Below are positions 31,049 to 32,985 of a stretch of 64,000 bases of DNA, one piece after another; positions within the stretch are counted from its first letter, which is position 1; the number at the start of each line of letters is the position of its first letter. A model generated the notes under the pieces. That model searched no databases. It was not told the DNA's origin and worked only from the letters and a program-made list of their open reading frames with translations. Both the position numbers and the translations under genes were made by a program. The stretch lies in sequence record NC_054918.1, one strand, 5' to 3'. The DNA comes from Escherichia phage vB_EcoM_G4498.

Positions 31049-31522
31049 TTATTTGAACGATTTAACGTACTGAATAGAACCTTTACTATTCACAAAGGCA
31101 ATTTTACCATTTTTGTTATACATAGTAGCAGTACGTTGATAACCGTAAGTTTGTTTACCAGATTGATAACCAACTAATGCGAAATTATCTTCACCCATTT
31201 TATTCTGTTTAGCGCGAATGCGTTCATGACCATGTGCCATAAGAACCTTAGCATCACCAGTTGCAATGGATCGACGAGTTTTTTCATCTTCAGCTGTATT
31301 AACAAAGTCGTCAAATGAATCAAATTTAGCATGAGATTTATTATACAGTTTTCCATCTACTGCATAATTATATCCTTGTACATCCATCTCAACTTCTGTA
31401 CCATCATCTAATACAGCAGTAATTTTCTGTCCTTTTTTAAATTTCAAAAGATCAGTAAAAGATTCAGCAATAATTTGAGAATTAATAGCTGCCTCAGTAA
31501 TAAATTCTTGATATGTTTTCAT
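31049..31522 (-). CDS. internal-protein-like protein with capsid-targeting leader (157 aa)
   Basis: N-terminus MKTYQEFITEA; AAAGGA SD. Confidence 0.65.
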   Translation of the reverse strand: MKTYQEFITEAAINSQIIAESFTDLLKFKKGQKITAVLDDGTEVEMDVQGYNYAVDGKLYNKSHAKFDSFDDFVNTAEDEKTRRSIATGDAKVLMAHGHERIRAKQNKMGEDNFALVGYQSGKQTYGYQRTATMYNKNGKIAFVNSKGSIQYVKSFK

Positions 31523-31630
31523 GTATATCCTTTAAATGTAAATAGTTTTATTCTTTAAGTTTTGGACAATTCACACGCATGAATTGTCCGTTTCTATATT
31601 TACCCATTACCAGGTTCGAACTCGGCTTTA

Positions 31631-32212
31631 TTAAGAATTACCGCGGGCTGCATTAGCAACGGCGTAAGCGTACTGAACATTAGCGTCTTTAAACGTACCT
31701 TTAGAGGTATCTATTTCTGCCCTAAAGCCGCCTTTAGTCATAACATCGGCAAATTCTTTACGGAAAGCCATTGCATCAAGACTTCTCCATGATGATTTGT
31801 GCTTGGCAAATTCAAGACCTGCGAAGTTGACAGCTTTAGCCAATTTATTATCAATGACCCATTTACCGGCTTTAGGCACAAACTTCGGGCCTTTTTGTTT
31901 AGAGAACAGTTTTAAATTCCAGCGACGAAGGTCACTGTCGGCTTTAACAAAAGCTGCGTCTAAGTTACTAGCAACAACATCTTCAATATGAGCAAATTTA
32001 AGTCCGTCAACTTCAATATTTAAATCGGTACGCCAGCGAAGTCCTTCCCATGCGAAGGCTTTAAAGTCAGAAGCCTTTGTAGCTAAGTACCGTTCAATAG
32101 GAGCTGTTTTAGGGTCAAAGCCGTTTCCCGATCGGTAGGTCCACTCATCTTTGTTAATGCCTTTGGCCTTTACTACAGAAGCTTCGGCAATAAATTCTTG
32201 ATAGGTTTTCAT
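31631..32212 (-). CDS. ipIII: internal protein III-like (193 aa) with capsid-targeting leader
   Basis: N-terminus MKTYQEFIAEA; 193 aa as T4 IPIII; AAGGAAA SD; own early promoter. Confidence 0.6.
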   Translation of the reverse strand: MKTYQEFIAEASVVKAKGINKDEWTYRSGNGFDPKTAPIERYLATKASDFKAFAWEGLRWRTDLNIEVDGLKFAHIEDVVASNLDAAFVKADSDLRRWNLKLFSKQKGPKFVPKAGKWVIDNKLAKAVNFAGLEFAKHKSSWRSLDAMAFRKEFADVMTKGGFRAEIDTSKGTFKDANVQYAYAVANAARGNS

Positions 32213-32238
32213 GTGTTTCCTTGTTTGTTTTGATAGAG

Positions 32239-32270
32239 TAATTATACCATATTAATACTTAAGCGTAAAC
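32239..32270 (-). promoter_or_regulatory. T4-type early promoter (-35 GTTTAC, -10 TATAAT)
   Basis: minus-strand GTTTACGCTTAAGTATTAATATGGTATAATTACTC. Confidence 0.55.
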
Positions 32271-32273
32271 CGT

Positions 32274-32534
32274 TTAAGCTTTACCGCCAGAAATAATTCC
32301 GAAGTTGTTAAAATCATATCCAATATCGTCAACATCTACTTTAGGACTTGCTACAACATAAGCAATTTCACTACGTTTTGCACAGGTGTTGATTTCTTTA
32401 CCATCGCCACCTAAGAAAGAATACCCATTACGTTTTAATGAGCCAAAGTCTTCCGCATCACCAATGAAAGCTTTAACTTTAAATTTAGAACCTTTGGCAT
32501 CTGCTTCAACGATAAATTCTTGATACATTTTCAT
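32274..32534 (-). CDS. internal-protein-like protein with capsid-targeting leader (86 aa)
   Basis: N-terminus MKMYQEFIVEA; AAGGAAAA SD directly after denV remnant stop. Confidence 0.6.
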   Translation of the reverse strand: MKMYQEFIVEADAKGSKFKVKAFIGDAEDFGSLKRNGYSFLGGDGKEINTCAKRSEIAYVVASPKVDVDDIGYDFNNFGIISGGKA

Positions 32535-32540
32535 TTTTCC

Positions 32541-32651
32541 TTAGTAAATTGATTTACCAAAGTATTTGTACCAAGTCGGACGTTGATCAATTTTTTCATC
32601 TAAGCGTGCTTGATTTATCGCAATGGACGCTTCGGACGGGTCATAATTTCC
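32541..32651 (-). pseudogene. denV: denV (endonuclease V, pyrimidine dimer glycosylase) 3' remnant, last ~36 codons only
   Basis: translation [36 protein letters not shown] matches the T4 DenV C-terminus as recalled; upstream sequence is promoter/IP-gene DNA, not denV. Confidence 0.6.
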
Positions 32652-32671
32652 TCCAAGTAGTTGATGAATGT

Positions 32672-32701
32672 ATAGTATCAAAACCCTTGGAGGAAGTAAA
32701 C
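32672..32701 (-). promoter_or_regulatory. T4-type early promoter (-35 GTTTAC, -10 TACTAT) inside the denV-remnant ORF
   Basis: minus-strand GTTTACTTCCTCCAAGGGTTTTGATACTATACATTC. Confidence 0.45.
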
Positions 32702-32703
32702 AA

Positions 32704-32985
32704 CTATTTTTCTGAAGCGCCTGAAATATATTTTTCAAGACGTTGTTTCATCAGCGAGCCGTTCTTAGCGATTTCTTCCGGTTTATCGCACATACGCAAC
32801 AAGGCTTCAAGCTTAACGATATCACTGGTGCGCTCAAATTTGCGAGTATCTATCTTACTAGCAAGTTCAGAAATACGTGCTAATAGACTTTCAGCTTCAA
32901 CCAAAGCTGCACCTAGCTTAGTTGCAAATGTGTCAGTAGCTTCGTTAAGAATAGATTCTGATAAAAATTCACTATATGTTTTCAT
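32704..32985 (-). CDS. internal-protein-like protein with capsid-targeting leader (about 93 aa)
   Basis: N-terminus [11 protein letters not shown]; ATG overlaps the stop of e (ATGA). Confidence 0.55.

Follow-up and report, generated by a model that had tools for sequence, protein, structure and literature searches.

What are the four short genes that lie beside the lysozyme gene e of Escherichia phage vB_EcoM_G4498, and what do their products do? A preliminary description of the 64,000-nucleotide stretch analyzed here (NC_054918.1; hereafter the window) had reported four minus-strand open reading frames (ORFs) at 31049-32985 that begin with a T4-type leader, and all four were found there with their leaders confirmed. 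The first half of the question can be answered directly. The four genes occupy the e-proximal internal-protein (Ip) locus of this T4-like phage (Tequatrovirus), and both the variable cluster and all four of its proteins have already been catalogued. T-even phages have two variable Ip loci, one beside e and one beside 57B, and at least 10 named Ips (PMC12373910; PMC3012670). The present cluster is one of these two loci, bounded by e and vs.8 as are ipIII and ipII in T4. The landmark gene e (32982..33470, minus strand) encodes a T4-type endolysin (Pfam Phage_lysozyme, E = 9.4e-13) and carries the label e or endolysin in T4, W143, and PST. It is followed, all on the minus strand, by ORF A (32704..32985; 93 aa, Ip5-like internal head protein, phrog_3499), ORF B (32274..32534; 86 aa, an unnamed "internal head protein" family bearing the capsid targeting sequence [CTS], phrog_2667), ORF C (31631..32212; 193 aa, Ip3, the orthologue of T4 IpIII, phrog_5341), and ORF D (31049..31522; 157 aa, Ip4, Pfam DUF7412). 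The description of these genes as consecutive holds in that they are neighbors, although a remnant of denV lies between A and B. The PHROG families of all four are annotated as internal head or virion proteins, and RefSeq labels the identical proteins of this phage internal virion proteins. Each family occurs in 213 to 495 phage records, and dN/dS values of 0.03 to 0.29 across the cluster genes indicate purifying selection.

The assignment to capsid-targeted internal proteins, proposed earlier, is borne out by the leader motifs together with the PHROG and Pfam matches and the position beside e. As defined for IPIII, the CTS comprises about 10 residues with determinants at positions 4 and 7 (PMC9026906). 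The leaders of ORF B (MKMYQEFIVEA), ORF C (MKTYQEFIAEA), and ORF D (MKTYQEFITEA), as well as that of ORF A, fit the pattern M-K-x-Y4-x-E-F7, so that the IPIII determinants Tyr4 and Phe7 are present in 4/4 ORFs, and the leader of ORF C is identical to that of T4 IpIII. All four also carry the gp21 motif (L/I)-x-E at residues 8 to 10 (LSE in A, IVE in B, IAE in C, and ITE in D), followed after Glu10 by Ala in B, C, and D and by Ser in A; a second motif, LNE, stands at residues 13 to 15 of ORF A. The predicted mature forms are 83 aa with a pI of 6.3 (A), 76 aa with a pI of 6.4 (B), 183 aa with a pI of 9.7 (C), and 147 aa with a pI of 9.1 (D).

Could such a leader have arisen by chance? When all six frames of the 64-kb window were scanned by regex, the leader was located at seven ORFs and the variant METYQKFIVEA at an eighth; all eight lie in regions where internal proteins are expected, so the occurrences are not due to chance. 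The four genes outside the cluster encode Ip7, Ip8, Ip9, and an unannotated 187-aa product (36662-37225); the other Ip locus, the site of IPI in T4, holds Ip9, Ip7, and Ip8 in this phage. At the DNA level, the leader-coding segment of the cluster is a 42-nt direct repeat in four copies that are 67 to 86% identical. Beyond the leader the bodies of A to D are unrelated, as had been stated, with no mutual similarity in leader-stripped pairwise comparisons (all E > 0.1, in a tiny database).

Comparison of the mature parts with T-even internal proteins, a check proposed in the preliminary description, yielded counterparts for C, D, and A. ORF C shares 95.6% identity with T4 IpIII over the mature part and matches phrog_5341 with an E value of 3.6e-117. 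ORF D is 99.3% identical to Ip4 of RB32, is annotated ipIV in PST, and aligns through residues 1 to 157 with the 158-position profile of DUF7412 (PF24183; E = 3.6e-95, 316.8 bits against a cut-off of 27); its family occurs in 469 phage records with a dN/dS of 0.14. ORF A covers positions 1 to 85 of the 85-position profile of phrog_3499, an "internal head protein" family (E = 1.2e-46), and with its leader removed is 48.6% identical to Ip5 of RB32, T2, and T6 over the whole mature part (E = 7e-19); Ip5 of RB32 matches phrog_3499 as well. The ORF A family is found in 495 phage records, with dN/dS values between 0.03 and 0.27. RB69ORF127c clusters with ORF A in the database, but B-type sequences share that cluster.

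ORF B matches phrog_2667 (E = 1.9e-19), and full-length Ip7 sits among the members of the same PHROG. Is ORF B then a homologue of Ip7? A leader-stripped profile-profile comparison of the two families gave a probability of 0.2%, and we rejected this assignment; the grouping probably reflects the leader and the few residues that follow it. The genuine Ip7 is encoded elsewhere in the window, at 40178-40486. The ORF B family comprises 213 phage records and, in a set of 5.8 billion proteins, no more than 12 homologue clusters, with a dN/dS of 0.25 to 0.29; in Lutter and UFV13 a frameshift divides the counterpart of ORF B in two. Directly upstream of ORF B lies what is left of the endonuclease V gene denV (32541..32644, minus strand), a dead remnant that matches only positions 100 to 138 of phrog_1183 and was recognized by BLAST and by alignment with Lutter and T4 denV. 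This gene is usually found inside the cluster, and here about 297 nt have been deleted between two AATTATGnC microhomologies. What follows the denV start codon is now an out-of-frame ORF of 9 codons, and ~36 codons persist at the end of the gene.

T4 has two genes of this kind at the locus, ipIII and ipII, and this phage has four, as reported. Whether the cluster should be called expanded depends on the phage chosen for comparison. The word is apt relative to T4, but the number of CTS genes at the e-proximal locus varies from 0 in T6 through 1 (T2 and RB32), 2 (T4 and PST), 3 (Shinka, Lutter, and G8), and 4 (ECO07P2 and L010) to 5 in W143. Among 83 CTS ORFs, there are at least 15 body families. 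Homology to T4 and W143 stops at 31491, precisely where the leader common to Ip4 and ipII ends, and the junction with ECO07P2 falls at the leader of ORF C. A 58-nt direct repeat brackets the Ip4 cassette in two copies that are 81% identical (both minus strand): copy 1 (30940..30997) lies downstream of Ip4 within the 5' part of the vs.8 homologue, and copy 2 (31576-31633) lies in the Ip3-Ip4 intergenic element (31563..31633). In Shinka and Lutter, the segment corresponding to 31058-31624 is absent and a single copy of the repeat is present. Because homology between phages breaks at leader-coding DNA and the 58-nt repeat flanks Ip4, these data point to diversification of the locus by cassette exchange. 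The genes would recombine through conserved leader-coding DNA at their 5' ends and through short repeats at their 3' ends. The Ip3-Ip4 intergenic element also contains a hairpin with a perfect stem of 11 bp (31563-31590; centroid -15 kcal/mol, z = -2.07). As an intrinsic terminator this hairpin was rejected, since no U-run follows it on the coding strand and the terminator-like call belongs to the opposite strand.

How are the genes expressed? Each had been credited with its own ribosome binding site, and several with their own early promoter. An AAGGA Shine-Dalgarno sequence precedes B, C, and D; ORF A, whose ATG shares bases with the stop codon of e in the sequence ATGA, has no clear Shine-Dalgarno sequence of its own. 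A scan of the cluster with the T4 early-type pattern GTTTAC-N17-TAnnnT identified one promoter upstream of ORF C (32241..32270, minus strand; GTTTAC-N17-TATAAT with an extended TG) and one at 32672..32701 (minus strand; GTTTAC-N17-TACTAT), both annotated at the homologous positions in Lutter. The second was originally the promoter of denV and now stands, orphaned, upstream of the denV remnant and ORF B. In the same scan, ORFs A and D had no recognizable promoter of their own, so that the claim of separate early promoters is upheld for C, applies to B only through the denV promoter, and fails for A and D. For late expression, two T4 late-promoter boxes TATAAATA lie upstream of e (33484-33491 and 33497-33504, minus strand), where Lutter carries an annotated promoter at the homologous site. 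No exact TATAAATA was found inside the cluster, which rules out a separate late promoter of this type for each ip gene. Since the cluster has no other exact late box in its vicinity, read-through from the pair before e is the probable source of late ip transcripts.

We then turned to the second half of the question. We consider it probable that A to D are CTS-tagged accessory Ips which are packaged, cleaved by gp21, injected, and active against host immunity, and which are encoded at a cassette-exchanged locus. The identities, leader motifs, mosaic junctions, and signs of purifying selection come from this analysis, and the rules for the CTS and gp21 and the functions of Ip1 to Ip3 come from the literature. 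The CTS of about 10 residues would bind the scaffolding core, and the protein would thus be built into the prohead. Cleavage by the prohead protease gp21 behind Glu10, in the (I/L)-x-E motif, would detach the leader and leave mature proteins of 83, 76, 183, and 147 residues that stay with the packaged DNA and are ejected alongside it, to inhibit host immunity as a first response. On the T4 map, genes 21 and 22 are located outside the part of the genome covered by the window, and we take them to be present as expected in Tequatrovirus. For A, B, and D, we infer packaging, cleavage, injection, and antidefense activity alike.

The targets of these proteins had been described as unknown, and this no longer applies to the 193-aa ORF. 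T4 Ip3 is packaged and injected, and it inhibits the two-gene GmrS1/GmrSD2 type IV restriction system of E. coli ECOR17 (PMC12373910, 2025); IPIII without its CTS still rescues infection of ECOR17 (PMC9391042). As Ip3, ORF C would almost certainly block two-gene GmrSD systems of the ECOR17 type, which attack glucosylated hmC DNA. The window encodes a DNA alpha-glucosyltransferase (4313-5515; Pfam AGT, E = 1.5e-236), from which the phage DNA presumably carries glucosyl-hmC, the GmrSD substrate. In an IPIII mutant the burst falls to ~40% of normal and polyheads accumulate (PMC9026906), and antidefense may therefore not be the sole role of this protein. Each of Ip1, Ip2, and Ip3 inhibits a different GmrSD (PMC12373910), and Ip4, A, and B would each most likely neutralize another narrow variant of GmrSD-like or other early-acting defenses.

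An alternative that we regard as possible but unlikely is that Ip4, A, and B are injected effectors against non-GmrSD defenses (other nucleases, for instance, or sensors of abortive infection that operate within the first minutes) and that the locus is a general antidefense island. When Ip4 to Ip10 were assayed against representative GmrSD systems of 15 groups, no reproducible inhibition was seen (PMC12373910, section 10 and Supplementary Fig. 9 legend). The target of Ip4 may therefore be something other than GmrSD. In addition, the bodies of A, B, and D had no similarity to those of Ip2 and Ip3, the characterized Ips with which they were compared. However, all three characterized Ips act on GmrSD variants, and the glucosyl-hmC expected in this phage is the substrate of such systems. 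GmrSD is also hugely diverse, and T-even phages were restricted by no more than 8 of the systems tested (PMC12373910), which leaves the negative result for Ip4 to Ip10 with low power. On the strength of that same 15-group result, a wider version can be formulated, which we find unlikely: Ip4, the Ip5-like protein, the 86-aa protein, and the product of the 187-aa ORF would all be injected inhibitors of non-GmrSD first-line defenses, with the conserved leader-coding DNA serving as a recombination "socket" through which effectors are swapped among three loci, not two.

Are the proteins instead mainly structural? Basic head contents that assist core assembly or neutralize and organize DNA would need no specific host target, and mature C and D are indeed basic. 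T4 IPs, at ~360 copies per head, copurify with gp22, and without IPIII heads assemble at half the normal rate (PMC9026906). Mature A and B, however, are near neutral, and a generic structural role is hard to square with a locus holding 0 to 5 genes with unrelated bodies. T4 remains viable when all three IPs are missing (PMC9026906), Ip1 to Ip3 have specific GmrSD targets, and host-expressed Ip3 works without its CTS (PMC12373910, PMC9391042). We therefore judge a mainly structural role improbable. That some of A to D are decaying relics of cassette shuffling, with the leader retained and expression or packaging lost, is very improbable, since despite the frameshifted B of Lutter and UFV13, the freshly deleted denV next door, and the promoterless A and D, all four ORFs are intact with complete leaders and under purifying selection, are served by Shine-Dalgarno sequences (B, C, and D) or by coupling to e (A), and have identical or near-identical proteins in hundreds of phages.

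Structure and wider database searches added little to the preferred reading of A to D as injected inhibitors of host immunity. AlphaFold2 models built with family alignments reached a mean pLDDT of 53.6 for Ip4 (13 sequences) and 48.2 for B (5 sequences), too poor for functional clues, and the Ip4 family is very narrow (14 clusters among 5.8 billion proteins). When all four proteins were compared with the sequences of solved structures (PDB), the matches were at chance level only (E ≥ 0.14), and a search of NCBIfam gave nothing meaningful. Injected Ips are the earliest phage counterdefense and help to set the host range of T-even phages, which serve as models and in therapy. The locus is a good example of a known pattern, a variable set of leader-tagged cassettes, and conceptually offers nothing new. 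Its practical value lies in a list of three candidate effectors (Ip4, the Ip5-like protein, and the 86-aa protein) and in the 187-aa ORF as a candidate third Ip locus.

How does the cluster compare with known systems? The functional paradigm is T4 IPI* (Ip1), an injected inhibitor of GmrSD-CT596 that follows the same delivery logic of CTS, gp21 cleavage, and ejection with the DNA (PMC3012670); it is presumably unrelated in sequence to A to D and is encoded at the other Ip locus. T4 IpIII equals ORF C in length and occupies the same e-side locus, and the two differ by eight substitutions in the mature part. The gene is adjacent to e in T4 and is separated from it here by A, the denV remnant, and B. 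Ip4 of T2, RB32, PST, and Klebsiella phage Roth17 is placed, like ORF D, between e or ipIII and vs.8, and that of PST lacks the 58-nt repeat that flanks the gene here. Ip4 (IpIV) is carried by RB70 as well, and PST is a Yersinia phage. ORF A resembles Ip5, which occupies the ipI locus of T2, T6, and RB32, in its PHROG and over its entire mature part, and differs from it as a diverged paralogue from the e-side Ip locus, where its gene is fused to the end of e, with a canonical LSE at residues 8 to 10 where the first I-x-E of Ip5 comes at residues 13 to 15.

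The four minus-strand ORFs that the preliminary description had reported at 31049-32985 are present with the lengths and leaders it listed: ORF A (32704-32985, 93 aa), ORF B (32274-32534, 86 aa; MKMYQEFIVEA), ORF C (31631-32212, 193 aa; MKTYQEFIAEA), and ORF D (31049-31522, 157 aa; MKTYQEFITEA). Their upstream neighbors are e, the T4-type lysozyme gene (32982-33470), and nudE. Could the N-terminal leader shared by all four be a chance pattern? A search of the window in all six frames found it at just seven ORFs and, as the variant METYQKFIVEA, at one more; all eight sit at usual T-even internal-protein gene sites, and the leader-coding DNA with its ribosome-binding region forms a 42-nt direct repeat in four copies. 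Because the leader is scarce, found at internal-protein sites, and repeated at the DNA level, the pattern in A to D is real, not chance. The bodies are dissimilar to one another by BLASTP, as had been claimed, and pairwise dN/dS values of 0.03-0.29 indicate that all four are kept as proteins.

The first ten residues of IPIII are enough to bring it into the prohead core; the targeting information resides at positions 4 and 7, and residues 8 and 10 guide cleavage at (L/I)-x-E by the gp21 prohead protease (PMC9026906). ORFs A to D all follow these rules, and the leader of C is identical to that of T4 IpIII, which supports the reading of the leader as the T4 capsid targeting sequence (CTS). Cleavage there would thus yield mature proteins of 9.2 (A), 8.0 (B), 20.4 (C), and 16.5 (D) kDa; A has a second candidate site at Glu15.

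The region matches 847 phage records, nearly all Tequatrovirus and relatives. None covers >90% of the locus, since the collection searched lacks Escherichia phage vB_EcoM_G4498, whose proteins exactly match five of six window proteins checked (C, D, Ip8, and a 187-aa ORF described below among them). BLASTP of the mature parts against T-even internal proteins paired C with T4 IpIII (95.6% identity) and A with Ip5 of RB32, T2, and T6 (48.6% identity, with phrog_3499 in common). We assign C to Ip3 on this likeness. ORF D, which matches Pfam DUF7412 over its full length, is 99.3% identical to RB32 Ip4 ("similar to T2, RB70 Ip4"), is called ipIV in Yersinia phage PST, and has a 70%-identical copy immediately after e in Klebsiella phage Roth17; it is identified by sequence as Ip4. 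ORF A is a diverged Ip5 paralogue, encoded beside e, whereas Ip5 itself is encoded at the other internal-protein (Ip) locus. The family of ORF B is small and unnamed; RefSeq and PHROGs annotate it as internal head protein. ORF B matches phrog_2667, which has Ip7 among its full-length members; a leader-stripped profile-profile comparison of B with Ip7 was negative (probability, 0.2%). The families of A, B, and D occur in 495, 213, and 469 phage records, respectively, and in RefSeq C, D, and Ip8 each bear the name "internal virion protein." Searches of PDB and NCBIfam were empty, and low-confidence AlphaFold models of Ip4 and B gave no structural hint of function.

Some database clusters mix these families. 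The 90%-identity cluster of B also contains 137-aa DenV proteins, that of A contains 86-aa B-type proteins, and one 54-aa protein combines the denV Pfam domain with a B segment. This is a database artifact rather than biology, probably arising where short contigs with fused or chimeric gene calls chain the families together.

The window encodes eight leader-bearing proteins, with Ip1 and Ip2 absent among them. Three lie on the minus strand at the second Ip locus (39876-40820; the ipI position, adjoining 57B), each with an early-type promoter 30-60 nt upstream: Ip9 (40548-40820; promoter, 40857-40886), Ip7 (40178-40486; 40518-40547), and Ip8 (39876-40100; 40138-40167), which carries the variant leader. 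A 187-aa minus-strand ORF (36662-37225; leader MKTYAEFLTE|A, with the bar at the predicted cut; mature pI, 9.4) lies in the e.x-tRNA region, outside both recognized Ip loci. It shares phrog_2280 ("unknown function") with RB32ORF133c (157 aa; leader MKSYAQFLNEA), for which the RB32 record notes a flanking 34-bp imperfect direct repeat. It occurs in 163 phage records, and the annotated entries among 20 listed all read "hypothetical protein" or "Phage protein." We consider it a candidate unrecognized internal protein at a third locus.

How are the cluster genes expressed? A Shine-Dalgarno sequence had been ascribed to each ORF; AAGGA does precede the start codons of B, C, and D by 3-5 nt, but A has none that is clear. 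Since the start of A also overlaps the stop codon of e (ATGA), A may be translationally coupled to e. Sites fitting the T4 early-promoter pattern GTTTAC-N17-TAnnnT are far more frequent in the window than expected (20 versus 3.65). Only two sites fall within the cluster, so the claim that several ORFs have their own early promoter stands for C (32241-32270); the other site (32672-32701) is the promoter of denV, which sits between A and B in Lutter and W143. Because exact late boxes (TATAAATA) occur solely upstream of e and prohead loading needs late synthesis, the cluster genes are probably made late by read-through from those boxes.

The denV gene, encoding a pyrimidine-dimer glycosylase (32541-32701, minus strand), has been inactivated by deletion of ~297 nt between two AATTATGnC microhomologies, leaving its start codon on an out-of-frame ORF of 9 codons, with the final ~36 codons surviving. 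Its promoter and Shine-Dalgarno sequence also survive, now ahead of that short ORF and of ORF B. In Shinka and ECO07P2, too, the interval from A to the following ip gene has no denV annotation. UV sensitivity, a property of T2, is predicted for this phage.

Aligned with T4 or W143, the window stays homologous from ipIII across the adjoining intergenic region up to 31491, the final base of the leader that its Ip4 shares with their ipII; the junction with ECO07P2 also falls at a leader. The Ip4 cassette, exactly 31058-31624, is absent from Shinka and Lutter. Two copies of a 58-nt direct repeat, at 30940-30997 and 31576-31633 (81% identical), flank Ip4. Together, these features point to gain and loss of cassettes by recombination in leader-coding DNA and short 3' repeats. 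Between Ip3 and Ip4, a perfect 11-bp hairpin (31563-31590; GGACAATTCAT-gcgt-GTGAATTGTCC) lies inside a 58-nt segment duplicating part of the vs.8 5' region. On the coding strand the hairpin lacks a following U-run; a role in RNA processing or stability is possible, as is a mere scar of recombination. The vs.8 homologue is itself split (30368-31019, minus strand): a 33-aa ORF with a GTG start (30918-31019) matches the T4 vs.8 N terminus and ends at a stop, followed by a restart at internal Met17 of a 195-aa ORF (about 30907). Its P-loop (GGRQSGKS) and weak similarity to terminase large-subunit ATPases (phrog_2, E = 8e-6) explain the labels "DNA packaging protein" and "terminase" in some phages.

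T4 Ip1, Ip2, and Ip3 enter with the DNA, and each blocks one specific type IV restriction enzyme of the GmrSD family (PMC12373910); leaderless IPIII expressed in the host still rescues ECOR17 infection (PMC9391042). The window encodes a DNA alpha-glucosyltransferase (4313-5515, minus strand; Pfam AGT, E = 1.5e-236), so the phage should make glucosyl-hmC DNA, the GmrSD substrate. Nearby lie gene 46- and 47-like genes (SMC_N/AAA, Metallophos) and nrdD, in line with T4 gene order. The proposal of injected antidefense effectors with no known target does not extend to C, which with high confidence carries the Ip3 function and its published target; A, B, and D remain candidates and, by analogy with Ip1 to Ip3, would be equally specific injected inhibitors. 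Since Ip4 to Ip10 did not reproducibly inhibit representative systems from 15 GmrSD groups (PMC12373910), a non-GmrSD target for A, B, or D is possible.

The observation in the preliminary description is correct and its interpretation essentially right. Interest is modest and lies in three candidate effectors without an assigned target, the clean footprints of leader-mediated exchange, the denV deletion, and the unannotated 187-aa ORF. Counting leader-bearing ORFs downstream of e in each phage, we found none in T6, where e abuts regB; one in T2 and RB32 (Ip4 only); two in T4 and PST; three in Shinka, Lutter, and G8; four in ECO07P2, an IMG/VR locus (L010), and the window; and five in W143. The cluster is therefore expanded relative to T4 but not across relatives. 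The 83 leader-bearing ORFs gathered from ~30 Tevenvirinae loci clustered into 15 or more body families. Two Ip loci are already described for T-even phages, along with at least 10 Ips, of which the targeting sequence alone is conserved (PMC12373910; PMC3012670; PMC9026906). As Ip loci go, this one is of the textbook type and has already been annotated, in a sequenced phage; the target of one member is published, and another member is a named, already-tested protein.
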